UHGV virus genome: UHGV-1541059
Reading direction: 5' to 3' (one strand)
Length of the DNA: 47,311 bases
Origin: a virus
Position numbers and translations under genes: made by a program. The notes under the pieces are model-generated. The model had not been told where the DNA came from and made no database searches. It saw only the letters and a list, made by a program, of their open reading frames with translations. Below, one piece after another: positions 255 to 19,123 of this stretch. The stretch's first letter is position 1, and each line of letters starts with the position of its first letter.

Positions 255-1454
255 ATGCTTACAGATACCAAATTACGAAACATCCACGGCAAGCCATATG
301 ACGGCCCGGAAGAAGTCCCGGACGCGGGCGGATTGTCTGCCAGGATAAGCCCGCGCGGAGTTATATCTTTCCAGTATCGCTACCGATTCAACGGCAAGCC
401 TCGACGGATGAAGATCGGCACATACGGAGAAATAACACTCAAAGAAGCCCGCGCGGCGGTGGCGGAGCATAAGGAAGTCTTAAACTCAGGACGAGATCCA
501 TCGATCGTAAAAAGAATGAACTTGTCACGCGTTACGACACGGGCAACGATTGAAGATATTGTTAGGGAGTACATGGAATCACCGCAGGCAAGAAACATGG
601 TCAACTATAAGCAAGTCGATGCGATGCTAAGTAAGCACATTGTCAGACCATGCGGTAGCTATATCGTCGATGATATGGACTCCATAATGTGGGAGGGGAT
701 TTTTAGAAAGGTAGCTAATGGTGGCGCGCCCGTTCAGGCCGGGATAGTCTTAAACAGGATGAAGGCGGTGATAAAATATGCCATGCGCCGCCGCCGCGTG
801 GAGCGTGACGACATATCATTACTACGCGTGAAAGACGTAGGCAAAAACCCGGCGCAAAGAAAACGCGTCTTATCAATACAAGAGATTCACCATCTAATCA
901 GCATTATAGACAGTTCAAAAATGGCGCGGCTAAATCAGATATTGATGAAGCTGATTATATTCACCGGATGCAGAACAAGCGAACTAACAAACGCAAGGCG
1001 CGAGCATTTCGATCTTGATAACTGTGTGTGGACCGTGCCGGGCGCATTGAGTAAGAACAGAAACGAGTTTAAACGCGGTTTATCCGACGTTAGCGTAGGT
1101 TTATTGCGTGAAGCTATGGATTTGCACGGCTTTAATTTTATCTTCGTTCCCGTGCTTTCTGGAAGGGATGAAGCGGTAGACAGGAGCGTACCGAAAACAG
1201 CCGCAAGGGATTTGATGCTAAGGATGGGCGGCGAGCCGTGGTCGTGTCACGATCTACGCCGCACTGTAAGGACAAACCTTTCAGCGCTTGGCATTGCGCC
1301 GCACGTAGCCGAAAAGGTCTTAGGTCATAAACTGGCGGGAATGATGGCTATATATGATCAGTATGATTACGTGAAGGAGCAAATCGAGGCGATGAATAAA
1401 CTGGCTGATTACTACATGAAGCCCATAGATTTACAAAATGAAATAACGTCCTGA
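255..1454 (+). CDS. int: Phage tyrosine integrase (P4-like, N-terminal arm-binding domain)
   Basis: N-terminus MLTDTKLRN...GGLSARISPRGVISFQYRYRF typical of P4-type integrases; C-terminal HDLRRT and AIYDQY catalytic region; track ORF 207 (GTG) trimmed to ATG 255. Confidence 0.88.
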   Translation: MLTDTKLRNIHGKPYDGPEEVPDAGGLSARISPRGVISFQYRYRFNGKPRRMKIGTYGEITLKEARAAVAEHKEVLNSGRDPSIVKRMNLSRVTTRATIEDIVREYMESPQARNMVNYKQVDAMLSKHIVRPCGSYIVDDMDSIMWEGIFRKVANGGAPVQAGIVLNRMKAVIKYAMRRRRVERDDISLLRVKDVGKNPAQRKRVLSIQEIHHLISIIDSSKMARLNQILMKLIIFTGCRTSELTNARREHFDLDNCVWTVPGALSKNRNEFKRGLSDVSVGLLREAMDLHGFNFIFVPVLSGRDEAVDRSVPKTAARDLMLRMGGEPWSCHDLRRTVRTNLSALGIAPHVAEKVLGHKLAGMMAIYDQYDYVKEQIEAMNKLADYYMKPIDLQNEITS

Positions 1455-1630
1455 TAACGGTAAAGAGATCCGCCGCGCTTTAATGCTGGCATCCCCTTAA
1501 CAGGTTCAGGGAAAGGAGTTCCCGCATCTTTCCATTTTTTAACGAGCTTAAAAAAGGCGGACTTGCTAAGCCCGCCTAACATTTTTTGCACTTGCTCGCG
1601 ATTAATAAGTATTGTGCCGATCTTATCCAT
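1412..1630 (-). CDS. xis: Excisionase / AlpA-like small DNA-binding protein
   Basis: 72 aa basic protein (REQVQKMLGGLSKSAFFKLVKKWKDAGTPFPEPVK) resembling Xis/AlpA winged-helix proteins; adjacent to int. Confidence 0.5.
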   Translation of the reverse strand: MDKIGTILINREQVQKMLGGLSKSAFFKLVKKWKDAGTPFPEPVKGMPALKRGGSLYRYQDVISFCKSMGFM

Positions 1631-2280
1631 TACTTATCACCATTGTAATTAGTAAAAGGAATATCGCCATTAATAATGGCTTTTGCCATATTGCGATAAT
1701 CACGCGAATAATCGTTTTCAGTTGAAAAATTAATATCGTCGGCGGCATCACTTCCCATCACTTCACCCGCCAGAGCCTTAGCAATTTTCGCAATAGCCTT
1801 ATCGATTGGGTTAACGTGCAAAAAATAATTGTAGATACCCCATCTGATCGTGGACTCGACAGATTCAGAGCCTTTCTCAACATAAACACCGTATTCACTG
1901 CCGATGAATTTAAACATGATTGTTCCGTAGTGATAACCATCAGAAAAATAACAATCAAGCCACACGCCGCATGGCGGCTTTTCTCCTGGCTTCCATTCCG
2001 TTTTTTCTGGTTGCGTTTCGCAGTCGCAGCGTTCATCTTCGATTAATTCATCAATAACTTCACTTTCTTTATTCATACCGTCATCATCCTTTTCAGAGAA
2101 ACGTATAAAGCGCCACGTATTAGCCATCAACGTATAAGATTCGCCGCCAACCTTAGATCCTGCGTAATACTCCGTACCAAAATCGTAATAGCTCGAAAAC
2201 GTTGTCACTTCGAAAGGCGGAATATCAACGCGGAACCTGTGAAGCATTGTGCCTATTGCACGAGGTGTTTTATTTGCCAT
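1630..2280 (-). CDS. Hypothetical phage protein (216 aa)
   Basis: Long ORF in co-directional gene string; no recognisable motif. Confidence 0.5.
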   Translation of the reverse strand: MANKTPRAIGTMLHRFRVDIPPFEVTTFSSYYDFGTEYYAGSKVGGESYTLMANTWRFIRFSEKDDDGMNKESEVIDELIEDERCDCETQPEKTEWKPGEKPPCGVWLDCYFSDGYHYGTIMFKFIGSEYGVYVEKGSESVESTIRWGIYNYFLHVNPIDKAIAKIAKALAGEVMGSDAADDINFSTENDYSRDYRNMAKAIINGDIPFTNYNGDK

Positions 2281-2281
2281 A

Positions 2282-2458
2282 TTACGCCACCGTTACATTG
2301 TCAACTTTGATAAAGTATTCAGGGTGATTTTCTATTTCGTGCTTGAAGTGCGCGTGACACAATCGCCACTCCCGCGCCTGGTTGTGGAAGTAATAAACAT
2401 ATTCGCCATCAACCTTATACAAAATTCCTGTAGGTTTAGCCATGTAATAACGCGCCAT
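2282..2458 (-). CDS. Hypothetical small protein
   Basis: Start moved to internal Met (MARYYMAKP...) preceded by GGGGG RBS, abutting the NinB stop. Confidence 0.4.
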   Translation of the reverse strand: MARYYMAKPTGILYKVDGEYVYYFHNQAREWRLCHAHFKHEIENHPEYFIKVDNVTVA

Positions 2459-2460
2459 TA

Positions 2461-2889
2461 TTACCCCCAGCGTTTTATGAATTCCTCGTTTAATTTCGTA
2501 TCGCCAGACCATTGAACATCATGTTCAGCGCCGAACGAGTAGATCAGCTCGATTAGTTCACTGAATTCTGATTTACTCATCCGGCTGGTTGATGTCCCCA
2601 ATACAACAAAGCCGGATTTATCCAGGTTAGGGACGACGCCATATTTCTTAAGTCCGGCAGTGAATACCGCTTTCCAGTCTTCCGGAGACAGCTTTTTACC
2701 GTACCAATTAACCTGATCGCTAATGTCGGTTAACAGCGCCCAAAGCAACGCGTTTTGACTCAGCGAGCGGGTTTTCTCCTGGATGGTAATTATCAGCGGG
2801 CTTTTGCTATCAGGCTGGATCTCTCTTATCTGCCTGATAGCATTTTCTTTCACGGCGTCGTTTACTATCTCAAATCTAATTTGCCTCAT
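2461..2889 (-). CDS. ninB: NinB (Orf) recombination mediator
   Basis: Sequence pattern ...IQEKTRSLSQNALLWALLTDISDQVNWYGKKLSPEDWKAVFTAGLKK...VVPNL..GFVVLGTSTSRM matches the lambda NinB/Orf family as recalled. Confidence 0.78.
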   Translation of the reverse strand: MRQIRFEIVNDAVKENAIRQIREIQPDSKSPLIITIQEKTRSLSQNALLWALLTDISDQVNWYGKKLSPEDWKAVFTAGLKKYGVVPNLDKSGFVVLGTSTSRMSKSEFSELIELIYSFGAEHDVQWSGDTKLNEEFIKRWG

Positions 2890-3083
2890 AATACACCGTT
2901 GCTATTTTTCCATTGCGCCCGTGCGTACATAATCGCCTGCAAAGAAATTAGCCGCGAGCTTGTCATGAAAGCGCCTTTTAAATATTTCATGTCAACCGTG
3001 ACAGGTTTATCAGGATCATCGCCGCGCATGTATTCAGCAATAGTGCTTAAATCCTCCACGGTTAACTCCAAATCCTTGTTCAT
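2886..3083 (-). CDS. Hypothetical small protein (65 aa)
   Basis: Co-directional ORF, stop/start coupled to neighbours. Confidence 0.4.
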   Translation of the reverse strand: MNKDLELTVEDLSTIAEYMRGDDPDKPVTVDMKYLKGAFMTSSRLISLQAIMYARAQWKNSNGVL

Positions 3084-3092
3084 AATTCCCCC

Positions 3093-3299
3093 TTACACAA
3101 TCCGCATTGTGTTTCGTAATTCCCCACGCAGCGCCCGTAATGCATCGCGCATTGGCACGAAAACACAGTTAAATTTTACGTGTTTATATTTCCGCATTAG
3201 TGGCGGTGTATACACCATTGCGTCGTATACTTCCCACGGATAATAAACACGCGTATCATCAACAAACGTTTCAACTGAATAAAAGATTACTCGTCTCAT
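3093..3299 (-). CDS. Hypothetical small protein (68 aa)
   Basis: Co-directional ORF in early-left operon. Confidence 0.4.
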   Translation of the reverse strand: MRRVIFYSVETFVDDTRVYYPWEVYDAMVYTPPLMRKYKHVKFNCVFVPMRDALRALRGELRNTMRIV

Positions 3300-3853
3300 A
3301 ATTCTAACCCCGTTTCCCCGTTAAGTTTTTCGATCTCAAATACTGGTTTATCCGGTAGCAGTCTGTTATTTTTCCGGTATTCGTTCAGGCGGCTGTCAAA
3401 GTCAAACGCGAGATCATTTGCGTGACCGAAGCGCCCAGGTTTAAACAGTGAGTAAAAATTAAGGCCATGTTTATTGGTATCGATGCAAAGTGTTTCATCC
3501 AGTACCATTAAACGCAGCGTGCGCGAAAGATAATTCCACGGAATACCAGTTTCCGCGCTAATGTCACGCATACGCTTTTTAACGCTGTAGTCACTAAATA
3601 ATGCCGCCACACGATCACGCCGTTGTGCATACAAATATTTAATTCGATACCCCAATAAGCGGCGGCGCGGTCCGAAATATGTATATACACGCTCGACAAT
3701 GCCAGTATCAATCAAGTGTTTAATTGTCTCAGGCAAACATCCGGCTTCGTCATATTCCGCTGATAATCCGGTTTTCTGGCGTAGCTGGTGCATTGTTGCG
3801 ATGCCGTCCAGTTCAAGGATATTGATAACTTTTGTTTCAAGTTCAATGCTCAT
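3296..3853 (-). CDS. Hypothetical protein (about 185 aa)
   Basis: ORF between DnaB and NinB; start set at MSIELETKV (track ORF extends to 3889). Confidence 0.45.
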   Translation of the reverse strand: MSIELETKVINILELDGIATMHQLRQKTGLSAEYDEAGCLPETIKHLIDTGIVERVYTYFGPRRRLLGYRIKYLYAQRRDRVAALFSDYSVKKRMRDISAETGIPWNYLSRTLRLMVLDETLCIDTNKHGLNFYSLFKPGRFGHANDLAFDFDSRLNEYRKNNRLLPDKPVFEIEKLNGETGLEL

Positions 3854-3931
3854 TGTTTTTCGCCTCGTTTTAAGCGCGAAAACAGCCACCAGAAAGCGGT
3901 AACTTTCCGGTAAGCCGTTTGCTCAAGTTAA

Positions 3932-5353
3932 TTAAAAAGATGCGTTATTCTGGTTGTTTCGTGGGGAGAATCGGCTTGTCGCCGGACGTTGTTGCATTGA
4001 CTGGATACAAGCTGACGCCGCGCGTGCCTGGTCGCATGGTAAAATGTTGCCGTTGTCGTCAAACCGCTGGTAAACAGTCCCCGTTTTCCCGTGACGGTTT
4101 TTTGAAACGATGATCTCCATGTATTCGCGGGCAACTGATTGTTCGTTGTAGTAGCCGTCGCGGTAGACCATGATGATCCGGTCTGCGTCTTGTTCAAGAT
4201 TACCGGAATCACGCAGATCGGAATTGTTCGGGCGCTTGTTCGGTCGTTCCTCAACGCGGCGGGATAATTGCGCCAGCGCCGCCACTGGCACGCGCAACTC
4301 TTTCGCCATCATTTTCAATGACCACGACAATTGCCCTACGGCGAGATCATGACGTTCGGCCTTAGCCAGCTTCATTAACCCGATGTAGTCAATCATTACC
4401 ATTCCCAGGTTAGGATGGTCCTGTTTCATCCGTTCGACGGTGGCGCGTATTTCCTCGACCGTTAACTGTGATGCGTCAACAATCCACACATCGAGATCGG
4501 CAAGGGCGCTCATTCCCTGGGCGACGTGCGCCCATCCTTCATCATCAAGTTTTACCGGATTACGTAGGCAATCCGTTGATAAGTTCCCAGCGCCAGCGAT
4601 CGCGCGTTCAGTCATCTGATCGAGTGACATTTCAAGCGTGAACAGTAAAACGCCTACCCGCTGACCTTCTCCGCCAGGGTATGGACGTTCAGCCGCCGCG
4701 CGGGCAATTGCCAGCGCCAATGCCGATTTACCAGACCCAGGGCGTCCGGCGATAAGTACCAGATCAGTAGCGTTAATGCCGCCTAACATTTCGTCGAGTG
4801 GGTCAATCCCTGTTTTGATGTTGTCAGAGTTCACGCCACACTCCATGCGTTTACTTAGCACTTCCGTGTATTCCTGGACCGCATCGCGCAACAGCACCGG
4901 GATAATCTTGTCTTTCGTTACTTTTAATTTTGAATACCGGGAATCAAAATATTTCATCGTCTCCCTGACAACTTCAAGCGTCCCGGTTTCCAGTTTGTAG
5001 CGAATATCTTCCATCAGTTCCAACATTTGCCGACGCTGATATTCCTCCTGTAATAGCGCGGCGTACCCCTTCAGGTTGGCAGCAGATGGACACGATCGCG
5101 CCGTTTGCATTAGCGGGACAAAATTTTCGTTACCGATTTCATCACCGACCATCAGAGCGTCAATAAGGTTTCTGTTTCTTGCTTGCGCCCGGATGATCTC
5201 AAACGCTCGTTTATATAGTGGAATGGTGAAGACTTCAGGATCGAGCGTAGCAAGAACATCTTGCGCGTTAGGAGTAAGCCCGCCCAACAGGAGGCCACCT
5301 ATCACAGCCGCTTCCCGTTCCTGGCGTAATGAGTTTATTTGCTCAGTCACCAT
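3932..5353 (-). CDS. dnaB: DnaB-family replicative DNA helicase
   Basis: Walker A GRPGSGKSALALAIA, DnaB-type N-terminal domain, C-terminal RecA-like core; GGAGG RBS. Confidence 0.9.
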   Translation of the reverse strand: MVTEQINSLRQEREAAVIGGLLLGGLTPNAQDVLATLDPEVFTIPLYKRAFEIIRAQARNRNLIDALMVGDEIGNENFVPLMQTARSCPSAANLKGYAALLQEEYQRRQMLELMEDIRYKLETGTLEVVRETMKYFDSRYSKLKVTKDKIIPVLLRDAVQEYTEVLSKRMECGVNSDNIKTGIDPLDEMLGGINATDLVLIAGRPGSGKSALALAIARAAAERPYPGGEGQRVGVLLFTLEMSLDQMTERAIAGAGNLSTDCLRNPVKLDDEGWAHVAQGMSALADLDVWIVDASQLTVEEIRATVERMKQDHPNLGMVMIDYIGLMKLAKAERHDLAVGQLSWSLKMMAKELRVPVAALAQLSRRVEERPNKRPNNSDLRDSGNLEQDADRIIMVYRDGYYNEQSVAREYMEIIVSKNRHGKTGTVYQRFDDNGNILPCDQARAASACIQSMQQRPATSRFSPRNNQNNASF

Positions 5354-5371
5354 TATGGTATAGCCTCCGGT

Positions 5372-6490
5372 TTACAAAATGGAATATTCAGGGTAATAAA
5401 CAAAGCGCCCGATCTCCCCGTGATCAGGACTGTAAATTATTACCGCCGCCAGCCGCCGCGACCGCCAGCCGCCATTCGTTGAATAAGCGTCTTTGCCAGC
5501 TAACGTGCCGTGGTACTCAACAACGCCCAACGATGATTCAATCAGCCGTTGGTGATGCCAGTGTCCACAATGAGCGTAAACAGACGACGACTTGCCGAAA
5601 TCCTCCCGCCAGTCAGAAACGCAGGCAGAAAGTAAATTTTCTGGCTTTTTGATAGTGTGCCCGTGGTGGTAAGCAAGAAATGTTTTGCCGTACTGTGTGT
5701 GATGGACGATAGCAGGTGACACATCAACCGTCACACGCGGTTCATCTTCGTAAAAAGCCGCCAGCGCAGCACGTAGCCAGATCATACCTGATTGGTCGTG
5801 ATTACCGGATAATACCTGGATCTCGACATCCTTATGATTTAGTAACATCTTCCCGACCGCACGCCGGACCGACCGGATCGCCACATAAACCAGTTTTGCG
5901 TAGCGTGAATCACAATCTAAAACGTGATTACTTGATGGCGTCACTGGTAACAGGCCGTCAGTGTGAAGCACATCACCGCCGAGAAGCAAAACAGCCTTTT
6001 CAGACATTGGCGCAGCGCCTACCGCGTAGTCGAAGAAGTCATTTAGCACGCGTTCAGCGATCCCGGTGTCGTAGCTCTCACCGCATTCAGCTTTATGAGC
6101 AAGCGCCCCGATATGCAGATCGAATACCGGATAAAGGGCCAGGCTTTTTTGAAAATCAATTTCCGGCACTGGCACGGCCTCCGCGCGGGGTATTTCTTCC
6201 GTGAAGGCGTCACAAGCAGATTGCATTAGCATTTCCATTTCATCGCGGTCACGGGCTGTTTTAATCCAGCTCATAATCACATTGCCATCCTTATCGACGA
6301 GCAATGACTCAGCATTGACGCCAAAACCCGGTGCGCGGCGCGTGGATATTAAACCGCGTTTCGCCAACCGTGCGCCCAGGCGTTCGACGTTGCGTTTTGC
6401 CATGCCATATTTTTCTGCGATCTGTTTATACGTCAGACCGTTATTATGTTCAGCGATTAACTGTTCATCGCTGATCTTTCTTTGTGACAT
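5372..6490 (-). CDS. Protein with N-terminal HTH fused to a calcineurin-like metallophosphoesterase domain
   Basis: HTH LTYKQIAEKYGMAKRNVERL; phosphoesterase motifs DLH, GGDVLHTDG, GNHD, HCGHWHH; GGAGG RBS. Confidence 0.6.
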   Translation of the reverse strand: MSQRKISDEQLIAEHNNGLTYKQIAEKYGMAKRNVERLGARLAKRGLISTRRAPGFGVNAESLLVDKDGNVIMSWIKTARDRDEMEMLMQSACDAFTEEIPRAEAVPVPEIDFQKSLALYPVFDLHIGALAHKAECGESYDTGIAERVLNDFFDYAVGAAPMSEKAVLLLGGDVLHTDGLLPVTPSSNHVLDCDSRYAKLVYVAIRSVRRAVGKMLLNHKDVEIQVLSGNHDQSGMIWLRAALAAFYEDEPRVTVDVSPAIVHHTQYGKTFLAYHHGHTIKKPENLLSACVSDWREDFGKSSSVYAHCGHWHHQRLIESSLGVVEYHGTLAGKDAYSTNGGWRSRRLAAVIIYSPDHGEIGRFVYYPEYSIL

Positions 6491-6651
6491 AACGTTAATT
6501 CCTCCGGTTTACAGAATGTATATTTATTTTCCGTAAAACGCGCTACAACGCAAAAACCCACCGCGTAACCCACTTGTAAGGGTGCAGTGTCTTTTTTGCG
6601 CCAGAAGCGCAATCAGGTGGCTAATTTTCGATTTTTAAAGTAGAAGGGTAG

Positions 6652-6753
6652 TTATGGATTAACTTGTAGATACAAGCCGCCGAACAAGGCGACGTTAACA
6701 GCGATAGCCATCGCGATCGCGAAAGCCAGGGCGAACATGCGTTTACCGTTCAT
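6652..6753 (-). CDS. Candidate 33-aa hydrophobic peptide (MNGKRMFALAFAIAMAIAVNVALFGGLYLQVNP)
   Basis: AGAGG RBS about 9 nt upstream of ATG, inside an otherwise non-coding 396-bp gap of the replication operon. Confidence 0.3.
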   Translation of the reverse strand: MNGKRMFALAFAIAMAIAVNVALFGGLYLQVNP

Positions 6754-6886: not shown

Positions 6887-7939
6887 TCAAAGAACGCCAG
6901 CGCGCGTATCACGTAGCGTTTTTGGTTTAAGCAGAAAATCAAGTGTCGCAGTGAAGCCATTGCCGAAGTAAAAATCTGAAGCCGTGTTTTTGAACGTTTC
7001 GAAGTAGGTGACAAAGCCGTTAATGCTTTTGTCTTTCAGGTAGTCAGTGAACGCATAGATCTTGCGTTCAAGATCCCGATCCAGTTCGGCAGGTGGTAAC
7101 AGGCCGTCAAACGTGCTGTTAAATGCTTCCACCACGTCGGCAGCGTTTACAGTAGCTGATAGCTTGCGCCATTGTTCAGCATCAGCCAAATACCCATCAA
7201 ACTTAGTTACCCGGCAAATGTTGATAGGCTTAGGTACTCCACCACGGCTACGCCATTGGGTTAAAGCCCACTCAATCACTAATGTGATCTCATCCTCCGT
7301 ATACGCTTTACGTGTTTTTGTTTCTGTCAGTAGTTCTACGAATGGCTTAGCATCACGACATTTGCATCCTGCCTTGTCGTTGTAGAAGGCAAGGCAACGC
7401 AATGCCGCTTCGTTTACGCCATCCTGATTGACCATTTTTTGTTCATTTTCGACAATACACGAAGTGTATATATCTTTTTCTCTTTCTTTTTCTACTTCTA
7501 ATTCTAATTCATGACCCTTTCCTGACCCGGTCATGACCCTATCATGACCTTTTTGTGTTGGATTGATTAACTTTTCTAATTTTAATTGCTCCTTCGCTGT
7601 GTTTATGGCGGCCCTGTAAGCGCTTTTAGAAGTCATTGATTGGTCCAGCCTTTTCAATAACTTTAAACAAGTTATGTGGCCTTGAGAACATTCAAACAAA
7701 CCAATTTCGATGAAGTATTTCATCATTTCTTCTATACGTTTTTCAGTAGATCCGACGTTTCGCGCAATTATTCTTGCGTCATGTCGTAGGTCAAAAGTTA
7801 GATTGTGCTGATCTACGTCATAAGTTATTAGTTCTAGGCAATACCAATAAAGCCCGTACCCTTCCAGGCCATAATCTAATAAAACGTTTTGAAGTTTTTC
7901 ATCGCGGTTCGCATCGCTATCATGCTTAAACCACTTCAT
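6887..7939 (-). CDS. Phage replication initiation / replisome organizer protein
   Basis: N-terminus MKWFKHDSDANRDEKLQNVLLDYGLEGYGLYWYCLEL typical of phage replisome-organizer N-terminal domain; GGAGG RBS; upstream of DnaB. Confidence 0.65.
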   Translation of the reverse strand: MKWFKHDSDANRDEKLQNVLLDYGLEGYGLYWYCLELITYDVDQHNLTFDLRHDARIIARNVGSTEKRIEEMMKYFIEIGLFECSQGHITCLKLLKRLDQSMTSKSAYRAAINTAKEQLKLEKLINPTQKGHDRVMTGSGKGHELELEVEKEREKDIYTSCIVENEQKMVNQDGVNEAALRCLAFYNDKAGCKCRDAKPFVELLTETKTRKAYTEDEITLVIEWALTQWRSRGGVPKPINICRVTKFDGYLADAEQWRKLSATVNAADVVEAFNSTFDGLLPPAELDRDLERKIYAFTDYLKDKSINGFVTYFETFKNTASDFYFGNGFTATLDFLLKPKTLRDTRAGVL

Positions 7940-7942
7940 AGA

Positions 7943-8197
7943 TCATTCCTCCGGCAATGCAATATCATAAATGTCGCCGTATTCGTCAGCGCGTTTAATG
8001 AATCCTTTGCGGATCAATGAATTTAATGCGTCAACAGTAGTATGCAGTGGCAGTTCGCACACTTTTGCGATCTCTTCGCGTGAAGCATGTGCGCGGCCTT
8101 TGTTGTCTGCCTTTTCTGCAAACGCAATTAAGACAAGTTTTTGGATCGGGCTGTTAAGTTTTACGTTCCATGCTTCATTCATCATGTGCATACTCAT
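7943..8197 (-). CDS. Small winged-HTH DNA-binding protein, first gene of leftward operon (Cro-like position)
   Basis: LVLIAFAEKADNKG...ASREEIAKVCELPLHTTVDALNSLIRKGFI resembles the HTH_36 fold; AGGAG RBS. Confidence 0.55.
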   Translation of the reverse strand: MSMHMMNEAWNVKLNSPIQKLVLIAFAEKADNKGRAHASREEIAKVCELPLHTTVDALNSLIRKGFIKRADEYGDIYDIALPEE

Positions 8198-8503: not shown

Positions 8504-9151
8504 ATGAAAACAAAATGGTATGACTTAGCAAAGCAGCTCATGCGGGCGCAGGGCATGAGTCAGGATTCACTCGCAGATCTCATGGGGATAACTAAAGGCG
8601 GCCTGTCACACTGGCTTAACGGTCGCCGCGAGCCAAATCTTGAAGATATTGCGCGGATTATGCGGGCGCTTGGGCGTCGTCAGTTCACTGTTACACATGA
8701 TGGTATGGTCATTGATGATTCTGTTTCTAATACACTTCAGGCCGCACCGCCGCGTGATTTAGGTAGTTACCCGGTTATTGACTGGAAGGACACAGTAAAC
8801 AATATGGATGACACAAGGCGATCAGCATTACCACACGTTACGACTAGCGTTATTTGTTCAGATGATAGTTACTGGCTGGTTGCCAAAGGTGAATCAATGA
8901 ACGCGCCGCAGGGGTTAAGCATCCCGGCGGGGACGATGATACTTGTTGACCCGCACGCGCCAGCTATTGACGGCAAACTGGTTATAGCCCAGCTTGAGGA
9001 AGGGCAGATACCGACGTTTAAACAGTTGATTATTGATGGAGGTCAAAGGCTTTTACGTTCGCTCAATCCTCTGTATCCGCCAATCCCTATGAATCCAGAA
9101 TCAAAAATTATAGGCGTGGTGGTTGATGCGAAGATCGTAAACCTGCCATAA
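8504..9151 (+). CDS. cI: CI-like repressor (HTH plus S24 LexA-type autopeptidase domain)
   Basis: N-terminal HTH (MSQDSLADLMGITKGGLSHWLNG), C-terminal S24 motifs (GESM ... DGKLVIAQL ... FKQL). Confidence 0.85.
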   Translation: MKTKWYDLAKQLMRAQGMSQDSLADLMGITKGGLSHWLNGRREPNLEDIARIMRALGRRQFTVTHDGMVIDDSVSNTLQAAPPRDLGSYPVIDWKDTVNNMDDTRRSALPHVTTSVICSDDSYWLVAKGESMNAPQGLSIPAGTMILVDPHAPAIDGKLVIAQLEEGQIPTFKQLIIDGGQRLLRSLNPLYPPIPMNPESKIIGVVVDAKIVNLP

Positions 9152-9156: not shown

Positions 9157-9182
9157 AGCCGCCGGATGGCGGCTTTTCTTTG
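9157..9182 (+). terminator. Intrinsic terminator after cI
   Basis: 7-bp GC stem (agccgcc-ggat-ggcggct) followed by TTTTCTTT. Confidence 0.6.
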
Positions 9183-9260: not shown

Positions 9261-9303
9261 GTATACAAAATGGATTGACTCGATGTTTTACGGGGCGTAT
9301 ATT
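9261..9303 (+). promoter_or_regulatory. Strong sigma70 promoter (pL-like) with the 13-bp motif abutting the -35
   Basis: GTATACAAAATGG-a-TTGACT-17 bp-TATATT. Confidence 0.55.
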
Positions 9304-9651: not shown

Positions 9652-9942
9652 ATGAGCGTTACAATTATATATGGTAAATGTGATAGCAAAATGAATGCCA
9701 GGGAACGCAGAAGGATAAAAAGAGAAAACGAAAGAAAATCATCACCTGCAATCAATAAAACAGACAATGTGGATAAAGCTATTCGATTTGCAAACGAGGA
9801 AAGATGCAAACCAAATAGCATTAAAGAACGTCGCAAAGGATCAGTAAAATGGTATACGGAAAATGAAAGCGGCAGCTACTACCACGCAACGCAACCACGA
9901 CATTTAGGGGAAAAACCCCTGGATAAAGTCCGCTATCATTAA
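9652..9942 (+). CDS. N-like transcription antiterminator (P22 gene 24-like, arginine-rich motif)
   Basis: MSVTIIYGK...NARERRRIKRENERK resembles the P22 gp24 N-terminus and ARM; position after pL/nut. Confidence 0.55.
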   Translation: MSVTIIYGKCDSKMNARERRRIKRENERKSSPAINKTDNVDKAIRFANEERCKPNSIKERRKGSVKWYTENESGSYYHATQPRHLGEKPLDKVRYH

Positions 9943-11682: not shown

Positions 11683-11786
11683 AAAAGATTGCAATGTTAT
11701 CCGCCGCCGTTGCTGTGGCGGCTGTTTACCTTAGTGCGTCACTCTATATCACTGTGGCGATTGTTAAGCTGATTACTGACATGTGA
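11679..11786 (+). CDS. Small membrane peptide (35 aa, MKKIAMLSAAVAVAAVYLSASLYITVAIVKLITDM)
   Basis: ATGA overlap with upstream stop; single hydrophobic helix. Confidence 0.35.
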   Translation: MKKIAMLSAAVAVAAVYLSASLYITVAIVKLITDM

Positions 11787-12699: not shown

Positions 12700-13320
12700 A
12701 TGAACGACATCAAAACAGCTTACTCTCTCGGTAATGAAGGCATGTTAATCACTCGCTATACAGATGATGCAAACTTTCACGAAGTGGAAATTAAAGATTA
12801 TCACGAAGTATTGAAAGATATGGAAGCTGGCGCGTATGACGCTGATTTGAATCTGGCGCTACAGGTTGTTGATATTGTGATGGGTGCGTCAATCCGCGAT
12901 TACGTGTCTTTAAGTATGGAAGAAAAAACATCGGTAGCGCGTTATGTATTCTCTCTTACTTTTGTGAAGCGCATGGAGGAAGAATTCGGACGCGTACCAG
13001 TGCCGGAAGAGGTTGATCCGCTCGCGTTCGGAAGTGCTGTTATTCTCCCGTTGAACAAGGATCAGTTTGGTAGTGTTTCACTGCATTCTATGCGCGGCCT
13101 GATGAAAAACATCTTTGAAGTTAAGATGTTGCAGAAATGCATTGAGGAAGGCCACAAAGAAGAAGAAGTAAAAGCGTTTATGCCGCTGTTTTACGGTGAA
13201 ATGGTTGGCAATGATATGCGCGCAAATGATTTCGGTGTGCAGGCGGCTATCGCTGTGCTTAATGATGCACGGAAAAACGCACAGCCGATGCCTGAACAGG
13301 AAAAACGTGTACTGCATTAA
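12700..13320 (+). CDS. Hypothetical protein (206 aa)
   Basis: Largest unknown ORF of the early accessory block. Confidence 0.5.
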   Translation: MNDIKTAYSLGNEGMLITRYTDDANFHEVEIKDYHEVLKDMEAGAYDADLNLALQVVDIVMGASIRDYVSLSMEEKTSVARYVFSLTFVKRMEEEFGRVPVPEEVDPLAFGSAVILPLNKDQFGSVSLHSMRGLMKNIFEVKMLQKCIEEGHKEEEVKAFMPLFYGEMVGNDMRANDFGVQAAIAVLNDARKNAQPMPEQEKRVLH

Positions 13321-13418
13321 CCGAGTGATTCCGATTACATAAATATACATTATGTATTGTGATCGCATATCCGTTTTGTAAGCCAAAATCAAAAGGTTTA
13401 CGGTGCGGAGGAAGCAAA

Positions 13419-13637
13419 ATGGAACGCGAATTGATGCTTTATTGCGTAGAAGGTGGCGTAGGTCACGATGCCTACGTCGCTGGGAAAGGCTATCCAGCCG
13501 ATGAAGTGCTTTCTAATATGCACTTCAGAGAAAATGAAAGCCAGGTGTCTGTGTGGAAACGGTGCATTGATGGTATTGAGGTTGTAAGTATAGAACGGTA
13601 TTTAGGCACGTTTGATTACGGTGTTATTGAGGCTTAA
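13419..13637 (+). CDS. Hypothetical protein (72 aa)
   Basis: Start set at MERELM with GGAGG RBS (track ORF starts 13359). Confidence 0.45.
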   Translation: MERELMLYCVEGGVGHDAYVAGKGYPADEVLSNMHFRENESQVSVWKRCIDGIEVVSIERYLGTFDYGVIEA

Positions 13638-13735
13638 TTATGGACGATACATTGTTTTATATGTGCTGTTGCTGGGGTTTTATTGCCTTATGCCTGTTTA
13701 TCAGGTGGTTTATTGAATACCATATGAGGTGATCT

Positions 13736-13927
13736 ATGAAAAAGGTTGGCGAATACATGATACCGGATAACGCTAAATTAGCCGGAATCGGTCAATTTGG
13801 TTGTTATTACTATAACTGCGTTGGTGATATTTATCAGGTCAGTATTGTTGGTGGTGTACAGCATTTTCGTCTTATGCACTTTGAATTGAGCGCACTTAAA
13901 AAGGCGGTGTTAATGTATGAAGTTTAA
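13736..13927 (+). CDS. Hypothetical protein (63 aa)
   Basis: Co-directional ORF. Confidence 0.4.
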   Translation: MKKVGEYMIPDNAKLAGIGQFGCYYYNCVGDIYQVSIVGGVQHFRLMHFELSALKKAVLMYEV

Positions 13928-14120
13928 ACACTATAGGGAATGGAAGATTCCAGAATCAGCAACAAAGGCAGCGCCCGGAAATGTTTCCGGCGTTTATTTT
14001 TATATGGAAGGTAAATGGTATTTCGGCAGCAGGCCGGATCACTATTATCAGGAAATGTGTGATTCTCATGTACTTGATATAAAATTTCGCGTGCAAGGCG
14101 GTGTGATTGAGGACGTTTAG
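13917..14120 (+). CDS. Hypothetical protein (67 aa)
   Basis: Co-directional ORF. Confidence 0.4.
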   Translation: MKFKHYREWKIPESATKAAPGNVSGVYFYMEGKWYFGSRPDHYYQEMCDSHVLDIKFRVQGGVIEDV

Positions 14121-14121
14121 A

Positions 14122-14349
14122 ATGATGCGTGCACTTATTGACTTCATTATGGGCTGGCTATTTTGTTCTTTTTTTGTATTCTCATGCATAGCTACGGTTC
14201 TTATTGGAATTTTATGCGGTGTGTCTTTTGTTACATGGGAACTACCAGAAATGCCATCACCTGATGATGCGCTTTATATGTTAAGGATCATTATTGCTGT
14301 TAGTGTATTTGTTGGGTTCTTTTTCGCTGATTTTACTGATTATTTATGA
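14122..14349 (+). CDS. Small membrane protein (75 aa, two predicted TM helices)
   Basis: MMRALIDFIMGWLFCSFFVFSCIATVLIGILCGVSFV...; start at ATG 14122. Confidence 0.45.
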   Translation: MMRALIDFIMGWLFCSFFVFSCIATVLIGILCGVSFVTWELPEMPSPDDALYMLRIIIAVSVFVGFFFADFTDYL

Positions 14350-14350
14350 A

Positions 14351-14584
14351 ATGGCTTTATTTAACCTGTCAGAGCCGCAATTTAACGCCGTAAAAGCTGC
14401 CGCCCGCGCAGCGCTTTCTGCCTGCAAAGCGGAGGTGGAGAAAAACGGCTACAGCGATAAAGCTACGCGGCTGATATTAGAAAAGCATTATCGCAAGGTC
14501 GCCCCGCTAATCAGTATTGAGCGTTTTGTGTGGTTGGTGGGGTATCTAAATAACCGCTGGGGGACTGATCAGGATTATTTCTAA
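14351..14584 (+). CDS. Hypothetical protein (77 aa)
   Basis: Start at MALFNLSEPQF immediately after upstream stop. Confidence 0.4.
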   Translation: MALFNLSEPQFNAVKAAARAALSACKAEVEKNGYSDKATRLILEKHYRKVAPLISIERFVWLVGYLNNRWGTDQDYF

Positions 14585-14593
14585 GGGGGCGTA

Positions 14594-15133
14594 ATGAAAA
14601 ATGATTACGGCGGCAGCCATACGCCGAAAGAAATAAAGGATTTATGGCAAACGCCAAAACCCGCTTTTAGAGGAATGGATCGTGAATTCGAATTCGTCGC
14701 TGATGTGGCGGCAAACAAGGCAAACGCATTAGTTCCGCGATATATAACAGAAGAAATGGACACGTTGCATTATCCGTGGGGAGCGGTGGCAATGCCTGGT
14801 GAGTATGTCTGGCTTAATCCACCATATTCTAATCCGGGGCCATTCGTTGATAAAGCGGCGCTTGAACACAGCCGAAACCATATCGGATGCGTAATGTTAT
14901 TGCCCGCTGATATTTCTGTTAACTGGTTTATGAACGGCGTGGAGACGGCAAACGAATGCCGATTAATTACGCGCGGGCGGCTGGCGTTTATCAATGCTGC
15001 GACGGGTAAACCAGCAAGCGGAAACAATAAAGGGAGTTTGTTCTTGATCTGGCATCCACGATGCAGACATGAATGTATTTTCACGCAGATAACACGTAAA
15101 GAGCTATATGCAAGAGGTGCAGAAAATGAGTAA
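14594..15133 (+). CDS. dam: Phage DNA N6-adenine methyltransferase (Dam-like)
   Basis: WQTPKPAF ... DVAANKANALVPRY ... catalytic NPPY (WLNPPYSN) typical of the phage N-6-adenine methyltransferase family. Confidence 0.85.
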   Translation: MKNDYGGSHTPKEIKDLWQTPKPAFRGMDREFEFVADVAANKANALVPRYITEEMDTLHYPWGAVAMPGEYVWLNPPYSNPGPFVDKAALEHSRNHIGCVMLLPADISVNWFMNGVETANECRLITRGRLAFINAATGKPASGNNKGSLFLIWHPRCRHECIFTQITRKELYARGAENE

Positions 15134-15617
15134 AGCGGCTGAATTGCTAAGACTTGCGGCTGAAACTATTGAGGCAAGAGGGGAACAAAACGGATACGAT
15201 CGAAAAGAAGAAAAATCAGCGCCAAAAATAGCCACTATTTACAACGCTAAGAAGGGGACAAATCTAACCCCGCTTGATGTATGGGATCTACTAATTTGTC
15301 TCAAGGAGGGGCGATTAGAGGCCATTTTAAGCAATGGTAGCGACCCGCTCGACACTCTTATAGACCTTATTGCTTATAACGCGCTAAAAGCGGAGCAAAT
15401 ATTAACGGAGCGGGAGGAAGAACAAAGAAAGAAACAGGCTGTTTTTGATATGCCGTTAAATTGCGGCTGCAAGAAAACATCAATACCAGGCGACTTGATC
15501 GCCGCCAGCGGGATAACGCTAAATGGTAGCCTTTCAAATAGGCTTGATGTGAAGTTTGACAACGAATCACTATTACGCGCGGCGGGGTATCATAAGAATG
15601 GAAAGGGTGACAATTGA
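15126..15617 (+). CDS. Hypothetical protein (163 aa)
   Basis: Start at MSKAAELLRL with AGAGGTG RBS, overlapping dam stop. Confidence 0.45.
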   Translation: MSKAAELLRLAAETIEARGEQNGYDRKEEKSAPKIATIYNAKKGTNLTPLDVWDLLICLKEGRLEAILSNGSDPLDTLIDLIAYNALKAEQILTEREEEQRKKQAVFDMPLNCGCKKTSIPGDLIAASGITLNGSLSNRLDVKFDNESLLRAAGYHKNGKGDN

Positions 15618-16101
15618 CAGGTTATTAGCCTGCGTTTATGTCGCCGTTTTCGTGATCATCAATCTTATTGTTAACCATTGCGGCCCGTGGGTAATTCCGA
15701 TCACCACGGTAGCCGCCGTGTGTGTCAATATGATGATCCGTGACTTCCTGTTATATGACGGCGGCTTGAGATGGTCGGCTACAACATGCGCCGCCGCTGG
15801 CGCAATCACTGTACTGATAAATTACGACGCCGGAATGGTGGCGATCGCGTCATTTGTCGCGGTTGTTTCCGGTGCGCTTATTTCTGGCGGCGTTTACCGG
15901 GTTTTGCCTGGTGACTTTGATTCTAAACGTTGGCCTGCAAATATAGCGTCCGCCATAGGTGATGCGTTAATTTTCCCGACGCTATCGTTTATGGCATTTA
16001 TGCCGGAAATATCAGCTATGCAATTCATCTCAAAAATGGCAGCGGTAACGGTGATTACTATCATCATGCGCCGCTATTTCACGTTTGAGGGTAGAAAATG
16101 A
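15598..16101 (+). CDS. Polytopic inner-membrane protein; weak resemblance to VUT/YhhQ-type transporters
   Basis: 4-5 predicted TM helices; start at MERVTIDRLL; sits between the two methyltransferase genes. Confidence 0.45.
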   Translation: MERVTIDRLLACVYVAVFVIINLIVNHCGPWVIPITTVAAVCVNMMIRDFLLYDGGLRWSATTCAAAGAITVLINYDAGMVAIASFVAVVSGALISGGVYRVLPGDFDSKRWPANIASAIGDALIFPTLSFMAFMPEISAMQFISKMAAVTVITIIMRRYFTFEGRK

Positions 16102-16862
16102 GCGGGCTTAGAAATTGGGTGGTGTGGTCGCTGTATGACGGCAGCGGGTACGCTGTTAAAGATTGGGCGGACGCTGGTTATAAATGTTATTGCTTCAACT
16201 ATGACGGCGCTAATCACGGTGATTATGACGGGGTAAAAATAATTCATCCAAATATTGAATATGTTAACGTCTGGATTGATAGCCATTTTCTGGTAATGTT
16301 CTCCCCTGAATTGTCTGTATATCCAGATCCTGACATTATCCTGGGCTTTCCTCCATGCGACAATCTCGCCGTTTCAGGCGCTCGCTGGTTCGCTGATAAA
16401 CGGAAAAAAGACCCTGACTTCCAGGTGAAGGCGGCGCATAACGCAAAACTGGTAGAAAAACTGGCGAATATGCATAACGTGCCGTGGATGGTGGAAAATC
16501 CGGTGGGCGCACTGTCAACGTTATGGCGTAAACCGGATTTTATCTTCAATCCGTGCGCTTACGGTGGCTACCTGCCGGAAGATGATAAGCATCCCGCTTT
16601 CCCGGAATACATTGCCGACCGCGACGCCTACACGAAGAAAACTTGTATTTGGTGCGGGAATGGATTTAAGCAGCCGCTATTCCGTCCTGTGCCGATGCCA
16701 GATGAATGGGAAGACAGTAAGCAGCACGCGAAGTTAGGCGGAAAATCAAAGCGAACAAAGATGATCCGCTCACTAACGCCGCGTGGCTTCGCCCGTGCTG
16801 TATTCCTGGCTAACGACCGGGCCATCAATCGTACTACGCTCAACCGCGTTTTGCCGGACTGA
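16098..16862 (+). CDS. Compact DNA cytosine-5 methyltransferase-like protein
   Basis: Motif IV-like GFPPCDNLAVSG and motif VI-like MVENPVG in canonical order; only 254 aa. Confidence 0.5.
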   Translation: MSGLRNWVVWSLYDGSGYAVKDWADAGYKCYCFNYDGANHGDYDGVKIIHPNIEYVNVWIDSHFLVMFSPELSVYPDPDIILGFPPCDNLAVSGARWFADKRKKDPDFQVKAAHNAKLVEKLANMHNVPWMVENPVGALSTLWRKPDFIFNPCAYGGYLPEDDKHPAFPEYIADRDAYTKKTCIWCGNGFKQPLFRPVPMPDEWEDSKQHAKLGGKSKRTKMIRSLTPRGFARAVFLANDRAINRTTLNRVLPD

Positions 16863-16863
16863 A

Positions 16864-16944
16864 GTTTACAAAATGGCGTCATTGTGTGATGAATGTCACA
16901 TAATGGCGCTTTGCACCTTGTTAGCACGTATCCATTTTGTATAC
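16864..16944. promoter_or_regulatory. Control region upstream of ninF/ninG: inverted pair of the 13-bp motif flanking a CRP-like palindrome
   Basis: GTTTACAAAATGG (16864-16876), TGTGATGAATGTCACA (16885-16900), reverse-complement motif CCATTTTGTATAC (16932-16944). Confidence 0.4.
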
Positions 16945-17021
16945 TTCAAGCAAACAAAATGCTCTTTAAAAATCCGGCAGCGCTGAAATGCGTAGAAATC
17001 ACCTGAAAAGGAGAGAGCATT

Positions 17022-17198
17022 ATGCCTTTTGATAATTACCAATGGCATGACGACTATGAACGAGAAAGCGTTATGCGTGCAATGTGCAATGTATGCAGCA
17101 CGAAGAAAGGAGGCTGTAACGAGTGCAACGAATGCTTAGAACATTGGCTAAGGGCCGGACACGCCGAAAGGCTGAACGAAACAGAGAATCAAAAATAA
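17022..17198 (+). CDS. ninF: NinF-like small Cys-rich protein (58 aa)
   Basis: ERESVMRAMCNVCSTKKGGCNECNEC resembles lambda NinF as recalled; sits directly upstream of ninG; GGAG RBS. Confidence 0.45.
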   Translation: MPFDNYQWHDDYERESVMRAMCNVCSTKKGGCNECNECLEHWLRAGHAERLNETENQK

Positions 17199-17212
17199 TC
17201 GGGGTGGTTTTT

Positions 17213-17818
17213 ATGCAAAACCCTAAAAAACCCATAAGACGCCGTTGCAAGTGCTGCGGCGTTTTTTTTGAGCCTAAATATCATAATCAAACGTGGTGCA
17301 GCGATGAATGTCTGGAAGAACTGAAGTTTGACCAGCTATGCCGCGACCGTGAAAAGGCTATGAAGGCGATGGAACGGAAGAAACGCCGCGATAGCCAGCG
17401 GGAAGAACGCAACCGGAAGCGGAAACAGTTAAATCCGCGCAGCTACTGGATCAAGCAAGTTCAAAACGTATTCAACGCCTATATCCGCGAACGTGACGCG
17501 CGCTTGCCGTGTATATCCTGCGGGACTTACTACGGTGAGCAATGCGGGTGGGATGCGGGCCATTACAGGACGGTTGCCGCCGCAGGACACCTTCGCTTTA
17601 ACGAGGATAATTGCCATAAACAATGCAGGCACTGCAACCAGACATTAGACGGAAACATAGGAGGGTATCGCCCAGCACTGATTCGAAAAATTGGCCTCGC
17701 CAGGGTGGTAGCTCTGGAGAACAACAACGATACGCATAAATGGACGATCGCAGAATGTAAGGAGCTAATAAACATCTATCAGGCTAAATTGGACGCCTTA
17801 AGGAGAAAGGCAGCATGA
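17213..17818 (+). CDS. ninG: NinG (Rap) recombination protein
   Basis: Cys-rich NinG pattern (CKCCGVFF...WCSDEC...CISCG...HYRTVAAAGHLRFNEDNCHKQCRHCN); track ORF 17123 trimmed to ATG 17213. Confidence 0.8.
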   Translation: MQNPKKPIRRRCKCCGVFFEPKYHNQTWCSDECLEELKFDQLCRDREKAMKAMERKKRRDSQREERNRKRKQLNPRSYWIKQVQNVFNAYIRERDARLPCISCGTYYGEQCGWDAGHYRTVAAAGHLRFNEDNCHKQCRHCNQTLDGNIGGYRPALIRKIGLARVVALENNNDTHKWTIAECKELINIYQAKLDALRRKAA

Positions 17819-18222
17819 ATGAATATTCTTTTAGCCTGCCTTACCCGCCATCGAATAATCGCTATTACCGACATTCGCGCGGTTTTCACTATATCAGCAA
17901 AGTGGGGAAGGAATACAGGGAACAGGTAAGAGACATCATCGAGCTATTAAATTTAAATATTAACCTACCTTGCCGACTGGCAATTGCCATTTACGCCGCG
18001 CCGCCGGATAACCGGATCAGAGATCTGGACAATATCCCTAAATGCCTTTTTGACAGCCTTACTTATGCCGGATTCTGGAAGGATGACGGGCAAATCGACT
18101 CAATAAAAATTGTTCGCTGCCGGAAGGTAAAAGGCGGACGCTTGTTTATTAAGATCCGCGAACGCGGCGACCTACTACCGGATATTGACGAATACGCGAC
18201 TAATATGTGGGGTGAGCAATGA
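17815..18222 (+). CDS. rusA: RusA Holliday-junction resolvase
   Basis: FSLPYPPSNNRYYR...IPKCLFDSLTYAGFWKDDGQI matches the RusA family. Confidence 0.85.
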   Translation: MNEYSFSLPYPPSNNRYYRHSRGFHYISKVGKEYREQVRDIIELLNLNINLPCRLAIAIYAAPPDNRIRDLDNIPKCLFDSLTYAGFWKDDGQIDSIKIVRCRKVKGGRLFIKIRERGDLLPDIDEYATNMWGEQ

Positions 18223-18401
18223 AAAACGAAGTTAAAGATCTGCAAATAGATATTCAGCGCGACGAGCGTGATTTAGAGACGGTCCGACAAATCCAGGCTT
18301 TCCACATGCGCGAATTACTTGCGCTGAAAGAGTTCGAAAGAAAGCTGGTGCAATCCATTTCTGATCGTAAACGGCTGGCGGCACGTTATGAGGGCAAATA
18401 A
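18219..18401 (+). CDS. Hypothetical small protein (60 aa)
   Basis: Coupled between rusA and Q. Confidence 0.4.
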   Translation: MKNEVKDLQIDIQRDERDLETVRQIQAFHMRELLALKEFERKLVQSISDRKRLAARYEGK

Positions 18402-19123
18402 TGAATTTAGAATCCATTCTAAAATTCCACTTTCCTAAATCACCGCGATTATCTGACGAAAGCCGGGGCACGTCCCCGGACGCTCTTAATACGACGGATG
18501 CGCTAACCGCTGCGGGTATGGCGCAATCGCGCGTAGAGCTTGGTTATAGCGCTTTTTTAGGGAAGATGGAACTATCACAAGCCGAAAAACACAGGGCCGT
18601 AGTTTTGCTTACAGAGCGTTTAAGGGCTATGGCGAAAGATTACGAATACGTGATGGAGTTAAACGAGGATCAGCGCAATGAACTTATTATTCTTGTTGCC
18701 GTTTTCGCGTTTCGGGATTATTGCCAGAGTGCCGCGACGGAAAAAACTTGCATGGAGTGCGGCGGATATAAATTTACGTTTGATGAATACGGTGAAAAAC
18801 ACCTTTGTAAAAAATGCAAGGGGCATGGGACAGTTCGCAATCATTGTAAACAATGCAAGGGTCGTGGCGAAGTACCGGATAAAACAGCCAGCGAAGCGGC
18901 GGAAATGCCAGTATTCAAAACGTGCCAGCATTGCGGCGGGCGCGGGTACTCGCGTTTCCCGGTAGATCTCGTCCGGCAGGCGGTTAATCAGCTTGTTTTC
19001 CCGGTAAGCCGATCAACATGGTGGAAGAAATACCGGGCTTTCTATGAAGACGCCATTGCTGAATTGTTCAAAGAAGAGGCGCGGGCTGACAACGAAATTA
19101 AACGAGTGACGCGGGGTGAATAA
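18401..19123 (+). CDS. Q: Lambda-type late antiterminator Q
   Basis: N-terminus MNLESILKFHFPKSPRLSDESRGTS resembles lambda Q MRLESVAKFHSPKSPMMSDSPRAT as recalled; zinc-binding Cys pairs; ...GYSRFPV... Confidence 0.8.
   Translation: MNLESILKFHFPKSPRLSDESRGTSPDALNTTDALTAAGMAQSRVELGYSAFLGKMELSQAEKHRAVVLLTERLRAMAKDYEYVMELNEDQRNELIILVAVFAFRDYCQSAATEKTCMECGGYKFTFDEYGEKHLCKKCKGHGTVRNHCKQCKGRGEVPDKTASEAAEMPVFKTCQHCGGRGYSRFPVDLVRQAVNQLVFPVSRSTWWKKYRAFYEDAIAELFKEEARADNEIKRVTRGE

Follow-up and report, generated by a model that had tools for sequence, protein, structure and literature searches.

The window analysed here is the virus genome UHGV-1541059 (47,311 nucleotides, one strand), and the subject of this study is the order of its early genes, which lie between the integrase gene and the late genes on either side of the CI-type repressor gene cI. 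Gene identities and strands were assigned by Pfam and PHROG searches of the open reading frames (ORFs) of the window (Table 1). The leftward and rightward gene runs are separated by a 306-bp intergenic region. As the original prediction had described from the bare sequence, the leftward arm carries the replication genes and NinB toward the integrase, and the rightward run carries cI, the N-like gene, erf, ssb, methyltransferase genes, ninG-rusA and Q into the late genes; the coordinates also confirm that NinB is parted from NinG by the immunity region. Two of the gene names stand less firmly. The ORF called xis has the position and strand claimed for it, but it is only a putative excisionase, assigned from position, size and sequence pattern, with no match in PDB or NCBIfam and a sub-threshold Pfam match to AlpA (E = 0.19). 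Similarly, an ORF of NinF size is present upstream of ninG, but its likeness to P22 NinF is weak.

Table 1. Features of the window and P22 counterparts of the early-block genes (P22 rows in coordinates of BK000583, all others in window coordinates).
Feature	Position	Strand	Evidence or remark
Host abgT 3' fragment and attL region	1..110	.	the homologous prophage of E. coli 09-00049 borders on a truncated AbgT pseudogene beside ogt
TCTATCGTG-type repeats	about 120-215		upstream of int
Tyrosine integrase, P4-type	207..1454	+	Pfam Arm-DNA-bind_3 2e-19, Phage_integrase 6e-17; convergent with leftward early operon
72-aa wHTH ORF, putative xis	1412..1630	-	phrog_4745 'DNA binding protein' 4e-4; last gene of leftward arm
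216-aa ORF	between putative xis and NinB	-	
NinB	2461..2889	-	Pfam NinB 1.3e-46
Several small ORFs	between NinB and helicase	-	
Replicative DnaB-type helicase	3932..5353	-	Pfam DnaB_C 1e-75; counterpart of P22 gene 12
phrog_704 protein, function uncertain	5372..6490	-	phrog_704 4.5e-138 ('DNA repair exonuclease' in PHROGs)
Replication initiator, Lin1244_N domain and O-like C-terminus	6887..7939	-	Lin1244_N 7e-11; phrog_345 'replication initiation O-like' 2e-18
HTH_36 protein	7943..8197	-	Pfam HTH_36 1.8e-7; first leftward-operon gene, cro position
nutL boxA GCTCTTTAAAAATC	8326-8339	-	boxB-like hairpin UCGCU-GCGA-AGCGA 8307-8320; identical boxA at same place in mEp021
Candidate leftward early promoter TTGATC-16-TAAACT	8444-8417	-	15-nt motif 8416-8430 overlaps
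CI-type repressor, immunity group I	8504..9151	+	Pfam HTH_3 5e-13, Peptidase_S24 4e-19
Intrinsic terminator t1 after cI	9157..9182	+	stem 9157-9174, 7 bp with 6 GC pairs, then TTTCTTT; TERM_1 in mEp021
Candidate N-operon promoter TTGACT-17-TATATT	9275..9303	+	promoter scan, 10/12 matches; 15-nt motif 9259-9273 abuts -35
nutR1 boxA GCTCATTAACAATC	9559-9572	+	boxB-like hairpin GCCGC-UGGAAGU-GCGGC 9579-9595; same sequence upstream of gp17 in mEp021
N-like antiterminator, Gp17 homologue	9652..9942	+	phrog_271 1.3e-13
Erf	10092-10733	+	Pfam ERF 4e-42
SSB	10733-11149	+	Pfam SSB 1.6e-23
Abc2	11159-11443	+	phrog_656 abc2 1.3e-31
Terminator t2	11703..11730	+	terminator scan, 8-bp stem with 6 GC pairs; matches TERM_2 position in mEp021
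Accessory ORFs	between Abc2 and Dam	+	
Dam methyltransferase	14594-15133	+	Pfam Dam 4e-50
DUF6378 protein	within 14594..16862	+	Pfam DUF6378
181-aa ORF, function uncertain	within 14594..16862	+	mEp021 homologue annotated putative membrane protein
Second DNA methyltransferase	16098-16862	+	phrog_757 1e-87
Junction cassette	16862..16993	+	motif, hairpin, candidate promoter, nutR2; just upstream of ninF-ninG-rusA-Q
Junction hairpin, predicted t4	16880-16905		between methyltransferase gene and candidate promoter
Junction candidate promoter TTGTTA-16-TATACT	16918-16945	+	inverted motif copy 16932-16946 overlaps
nutR2 boxA GCTCTTTAAAAATC	16961-16974	+	boxB-like hairpin 16980-16993; same site in mEp021
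NinF-sized ORF	17022-17198	+	weak likeness to P22 NinF, E=0.005
NinG	17123-17818	+	Pfam NinG 1e-66
RusA	17815-18222	+	Pfam RusA 4e-15
60-aa ORF	between RusA and Q	+	
Q antiterminator, PF03589 family	18401-19123	+	Pfam Antiterm 4e-30; leads into late genes
15-nt motif AAGTWTACAAAATGG, exact copies	8416-8430, 9259-9273, 16862-16876, 16932-16946(-), 22536-22550		
15-nt motif, near-copies	5368-5382, 41947-41961(-), 43835-43849(-)		
Erf in P22	27269-27862	-	53% identical
cI/c2 in P22	31016-31609	-	40% identical
O-like C-terminus (gp18) in P22	33028-33300	+	34% identical
Helicase (gp12) in P22	33294-34625	+	57% identical
NinB in P22	34750-35175	+	53% identical

Orientation of the early block relative to P22 and lambda

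The window proteins were compared with P22 (BK000583) and lambda (J02459) by tblastn. Erf, cI, the O-like protein, DnaB and NinB stand in the window in the exact reverse of their P22 order, with the strands reversed too, and NinG (51% identical) and Q (33%, gp23) keep the P22 strand. The markers shared with lambda (cI 33%, NinB 52%, NinG 53% and Q 34%) give the same picture. Internally, the block from Erf through cI to NinB is canonical; as one piece it faces the other way with respect to att/int and to ninF/ninG-rusA-Q and the late genes. The two early arms had been predicted to be swapped; their direction compared with lambda and P22 was given correctly, but the arms have not been exchanged independently, and the whole block, cI included, is inverted.

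The position of cI, co-directional with the N operon and upstream of it, had also been listed as non-canonical, which cannot be upheld, as lambda, P22 and every P22-like Erf locus examined have the same arrangement. On the minus strand of lambda, cI (37227-37940), rexA, rexB, oL/pL, nutL and N (35037-35438) follow in this order, and on the minus strand of P22 the order is c2, OL/pL, nutL and gene 24. A cI gene co-directional with the N operon and upstream of it is the normal state. Nor do cI and the N operon obviously share one rightward transcript, as had been supposed: because terminator t1 and a strong promoter-like site lie between them, they are separate units as in lambda.

Besides the co-directional cI and N/erf operon, the window shares with P22 an N-terminal arginine-rich motif in the N-like protein, and with both P22 and lambda the position of nut sites just downstream of early promoters. 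It differs from P22 in that SSB replaces Abc1, in having three nut sites instead of two, in its P4-type and convergently transcribed int, and in its unrelated virion genes, and no homologues of P22 c1, c3 or cro were detected in the window. With lambda it shares a CI with an S24 domain and a repressor gene placed between two divergent nut-bearing early operons. The differences from lambda are the orientation of the early block, Erf/SSB/Abc2 in place of Exo/Bet/Gam, and a DnaB-type helicase in place of P. The lambdoid logic of N/Q antitermination and CI is therefore recognizable (N-like protein, phrog_271; Q, PF03589; CI, S24), with promoter-like and nut sites flanking cI, whereas the lambdoid gene order (att-int-xis-recombination-N-cI-cro-replication-nin-Q-lysis-morphogenesis) is not followed.

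Distribution of the order and membership in the mEpimmI group

Positions 1-20000 of the window were searched by megablast against 50,697 phage records, and eight records were matched: six mEp phages, MagusPhagus (PP925836) and one 1,450-bp fragment of mEp021 (JQ072023.1). The genomes of mEp010, mEp013, mEp021, mEp044, mEp515 and mEp554 are colinear with this part of the window on one strand (77-89% covered, 86-88% nucleotide identity), and MagusPhagus reached 96.7% in the same search. For positions 22400-47311 the same seven full-length phages were matched with a colinear coverage of 74-94% (86-88% identity for the mEp phages), and no phage records besides the mEp-type phages and MagusPhagus were matched by either half of the window. 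MagusPhagus is 96-100% identical to the window at the nucleotide level over the immunity region, N operon, junction and late genes, although its record is circularly permuted and gives the other strand. From int to the tail genes, gene order and strands in mEp021 and in mEp010/013/044/515/554 (PP180001-PP180005) are those of the window, which is nevertheless not identical to any record.

A prophage was counted in 5,426 complete E. coli genomes if it was colinear and covered at least 80% of window 1-20000, which was the case in 34 of them. Among chromosomes, E. coli 09-00049 holds the closest prophage (97%). It sits between ogt/truncated abgT and the integrase gene, and the RefSeq annotation of this genome gives the same gene order. 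The left window end, with the abgT fragment, is matched by 5,402 of the 5,426 genomes.

Erf was then used as an anchor in IMG/VR, with 10-kb flanks. Among 34 loci with an Erf at least 84% identical, 33 have the window order, and the remaining locus ends before the informative genes. Relative to the strand of Erf, these loci read NinB(-), DnaB(-), O-like(-), HTH(-), cI(+) and N-like(+) upstream, and Erf(+), SSB, Abc2, Dam, NinG(+), RusA(+) and Q(+) onward. At 54-59% Erf identity the order is P22-like in 46 of 46 loci wherever markers are visible, with cI(+) upstream and int downstream of Erf; on the opposite strand, NinB precedes Dam/NinG/RusA/Q. A further Erf search in GTDB (one genome per species) showed the canonical order in Erwinia, Cedecea and one Enterobacterales metagenome-assembled genome. 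No mEp-type locus outside E. coli was found through Erf in this set, and the lack of any mEp-type locus from GTDB is probably due to an E. coli representative without the prophage.

A rival explanation is misassembly, or an otherwise ordinary lambdoid prophage whose immunity region was recently inverted in a single strain; misassembly or inversion had been named as a caveat when the order was first noted. We found nothing in favour of this explanation and give it practically no credence. The same order and strands recur in seven phage genomes that were sequenced independently, in 34 complete E. coli chromosomes and in 33 IMG/VR contigs, which excludes the caveat, and these sequences have diverged to 84-100% identity, so that the arrangement is old and inherited. 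The proposed synteny comparison thus gives an order that is non-canonical with respect to lambda and P22 and is shared with mEp021-type phages.

The window is very probably an mEpimmI-group (mEp021-like) prophage inserted in E. coli abgT, in which a lambda/P22-type early control block is inverted relative to att/int and ninF/ninG-rusA-Q and the late genes. The mEpimmI phages were isolated in 1999 and described in 2025 as 48 highly syntenic genomes of Nus-dependent 'non-lambdoid' siphoviruses (Negrete-Mendez et al. 2025, PMC11893012); the mEp021 genome (MH706966) was deposited in 2018. Common immunity defines the group, whose repressors are about 96% similar, and repressor function has been demonstrated experimentally for Rep021 (PMC11893012). 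The window repressor agrees with the mEp021 repressor ORF in 207 of 215 residues (96%), and the identity of the N-like protein to mEp021 Gp17 is 93%. The arginine-rich motif of this protein (...NARERRRIKRE...) holds R17, R19, R20, R21 and R24, and R17, R19, R20 and R24 are the conserved arginines of Gp17 (PMC11893012); its N-terminus also resembles that of P22 gp24. Four integrase types are known in the group, with integration at ydaM, abgT or mppA according to type (PMC11893012). The int region of the window matches mEp010/013/044 and does not match mEp021/515/554, and by sequence its integrase corresponds to type II, that of the abgT site. Thus every character of the group that could be tested, namely synteny, repressor, Gp17-like arginines, three nut sites and abgT integration, is present.

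The order is therefore not novel but is the common arrangement of a described group, an outcome that had been named beforehand as one that would refute the finding, and it already stands on the public maps of mEpimmI (PMC11893012). That paper contains no words beginning with inver-, orientation, opposite or rearrang-, and does not discuss the order as an inversion; searching the literature for lambdoid phages with an 'inverted' early region gave nothing relevant. Since the order is characteristic of a published gut coliphage group that is fairly common, it warrants no anomaly or assembly flag in E. coli genomes. Nus-factor dependence is common to lambda and the mEpimmI phages according to the literature, and no recombinants between mEpimmI phages and lambda have been reported (PMC11893012). 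The turned-round early block offers a reason for the lack of productive recombination between lambda and these phages, which depend on Nus, N and Q.

How the order arose can be read in two ways. Modular re-assortment would have joined an early block, an int/att module and a nin-Q-late segment of different origins, with the junction cassette (see below) acquired or duplicated separately. The four integrase types at the same end show that the int module is exchangeable (PMC11893012), and P4-type integrases related to that of the window are convergent with the Erf operon in the canonical prophages L022, L055, L095 and L100. In the window, int is convergent with the replication/NinB operon, so the integrase module holds the same polarity towards the early operon that reaches it, whichever operon this is. 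Late genes that are not lambda- or P22-like in DNA, with only mEp-type phages matching 22400-47311, also agree with re-assortment, and an extra promoter-nut cassette requires a duplication in any scenario. However, the five block markers keep their exact P22 internal order, for which one inversion is the most economical description, and NinB on one side with NinF-like/NinG on the other looks like a split nin region. Re-assortment is a possible account that we are inclined to doubt, and the layout is most simply read as a lambdoid early block turned round as a unit. It weighs against this reading that a single inversion, as a historical event, is inferred and is indistinguishable from stepwise module exchange in these data.

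Candidate promoters, nut sites and the junction cassette

Terminators t1, t2 and t5 and antitermination by the N-like protein at three nut sites are taken from PMC11893012, where t1 of mEp021 is listed as experimentally demonstrated. The published sites are nutL upstream of the repressor gene, nutR1 upstream of gp17 and nutR2 after the cytosine methyltransferase gene (PMC11893012). A boxA pattern search of the window yielded 5 matches against 0.65 expected. Downstream of each boxA of the three nut sites there is a short hairpin whose loop is GNRA-like, the boxB stems of nutL and nutR2 are minimum free energy folds, and nutR1 is 100% conserved compared with mEp021. Gp17 and the nut sites were reportedly characterised in Arch Virol in 2023.

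Three candidate promoters lie in the region, one before each run of early genes (Table 1), and their conservation was assessed in 7 phages and 33-35 genomes, which represent 17-29 distinct sequences. At the N-operon candidate the hexamers are conserved and the spacer varies (comparison with mEp021 and 35 genomes). At the leftward candidate the hexamers are invariant and the 5' half of the spacer varies (7 phages, 33 genomes). At the junction between the second methyltransferase gene and ninF, no variation is seen in the TTG of the -35 or anywhere in the -10, and the 16-nt spacer is freely variable in its first half (29 distinct sequences; 7 phages, 35 genomes). Conserved hexamers with variable spacers are the pattern expected of working promoters, though not proof of them.

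The junction cassette aligns with the leftward promoter-nutL cassette as an inverted paralogue, promoter-like and nut parts together, with a local alignment score of 32.2 compared with 10.3 +/- 2.0 for random segment pairs (about 11 standard deviations); relative to it the leftward leader has a 63-nt insertion. The paired cassettes bracket an 8.4-kb segment of cI, N, recombination and methyltransferase genes. The stem of the hairpin at 16880-16905 is kept in 7 of 7 phages and its loop varies (TGAATG, GTGG, GCGG, GCTG).

The junction element might instead be a nut site after a terminator, with no promoter, and all rightward early transcription, Q included, would then come from the promoter downstream of cI. 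This explanation, which in our estimate falls just short of evenly balanced, accords with the group paper, which gives nutR2 and a predicted t4 here and mentions no promoter (PMC11893012), and what is conserved could serve for protein binding or as RNA elements instead of as -35 and -10 hexamers. Three observations argue for a promoter: the alignment of the junction with the leftward promoter region extends beyond nutL, the TTG and -10 are held invariant next to a free half-spacer, and nut sites stand just downstream of promoters in lambda and P22.

Within two mismatches, eight matches to a 15-nt motif (AAGTWTACAAAATGG) were found in the window against 0.26 expected, and five of them are exact. 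The motif overlaps the spacer and -10 of the leftward and junction candidates and abuts the -35 of the N-operon candidate. In the orientation CCATTTTGTAWACTT it stands just upstream of the leftward early operon, the helicase gene, ninF, and the tail genes M and L, where the copies follow leftward gene insertions. Three copies (9259, 16862 and 22536) have the opposite orientation; that at 16862 forms an inverted pair with the exact copy 16932-16946, and that at 22536 with a 3-mismatch copy at about 22567-22583. The motif was considered as a CI operator and not adopted, as it is non-palindromic and also occurs upstream of the helicase gene and of M and L. It could mark a promoter class, an operator or an RNA stem.

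From these features we tentatively propose that mEp021-type phages may have three early units instead of two, each with its own promoter and nut site, the third being the nutR2 cassette that would reconnect ninF-ninG-rusA-Q to early control once the early block had been inverted, with AAGTWTACAAAATGG as a shared control element; taken as a whole, we consider this scheme somewhat improbable. Several points weigh against it, as they do against our main reading of the region. A promoter scan of the whole region gave 31 sites compared with 35.8 in shuffled sequences, thus no excess, and promoter activity at all three sites is deduced from consensus and conservation. The nut hairpins are no more stable than shuffles (z -0.3 to -0.6), and the motif, which also lies upstream of the helicase gene, M and L, need not be a repressor operator. 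Neither the junction promoter nor the 15-nt motif is described in PMC11893012, and we regard the inverted duplicate promoter-nut cassette and the dispersed motif as a modest testable lead, not a discovery.

In what we take as the most likely working of the region, the repressor would hold the early promoters off in a lysogen, a function known from the literature. On derepression, transcription from the leftward promoter would pass nutL and take in the HTH_36 gene, initiator, helicase, NinB and the putative xis beside convergent int. From the promoter downstream of cI, transcription would pass nutR1 and take in the N-like gene, followed by the recombination and methyltransferase genes. Together with host Nus factors, the N-like protein would suppress terminators t2-t4, as the literature indicates, and Q, 9 kb from the N-operon promoter, would be reached by N-modified read-through across t2-t4. 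As an alternative or additional route to Q, transcription may start at the junction cassette, 1.4 kb upstream of Q, and be modified at nutR2. Q would then turn on the late genes. Because the block is inverted, the nin-Q segment no longer lies downstream of the nut site of the replication operon; this parting of Q from the replication operon supplies a rationale for the unusual third nut site, and it makes a third early promoter a specific testable prediction.

Minor features of the window

Some features of the intergenic and leftward regions were also noted. No cro-, cII- or cIII-sized ORF or homologue was found in window 8198-8503. An ORF at 8251-8556(-) was taken as spurious, having no family match, overlapping the start of cI and spanning the promoter region. 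A weak -10-like TATAGG (8489-8494) lies a few bases 5' of the cI start codon, pointing to a cI mRNA with little or no leader, like that made from lambda pRM. The HTH_36 gene is tightly coupled to the replication initiator gene. The replication arm varies within the group (window 2886-6886 compared with mEp021 2836-9600): an N4/N6 methyltransferase, an HNH endonuclease and a 495-aa zinc-ribbon protein are present in mEp021, and all three are missing from the window. The putative xis ORF overlaps the 3' end of convergent int by 43 nt (1412-1454), and near its 5' end, on its own strand, there is a strong terminator-like hairpin (1577-1555, 10-bp stem and TTTTTT), which may serve to regulate excision or may be fortuitous.

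Other observations concern the rightward arm. The leader of the N-like gene (9304-9651, about 340 nt) is 96-100% identical to mEp021, compared with about 88% genome-wide, and holds an extra boxA-like sequence (9346-9359) and GC-rich hairpins. It may be structured or processed, as with lambda N; at Rfam gathering thresholds no RNA family was found in the window, this leader included. The 181-aa ORF has no Pfam or NCBIfam match. The junction hairpin is followed by GGCGC and then a short T-run, and is not a textbook intrinsic terminator. Finally, the run of rightward tail genes is broken in two places by clustered small leftward ORFs, first at 41153-41950, between the tape-measure gene and M, and again at 42832-43895, between M and L. 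Both clusters have a low G+C (0.41-0.44) and reversed skew and look like moron insertions, and the superinfection-exclusion lipoprotein genes of mEpimmI phages have been placed in the late region (PMC11893012).

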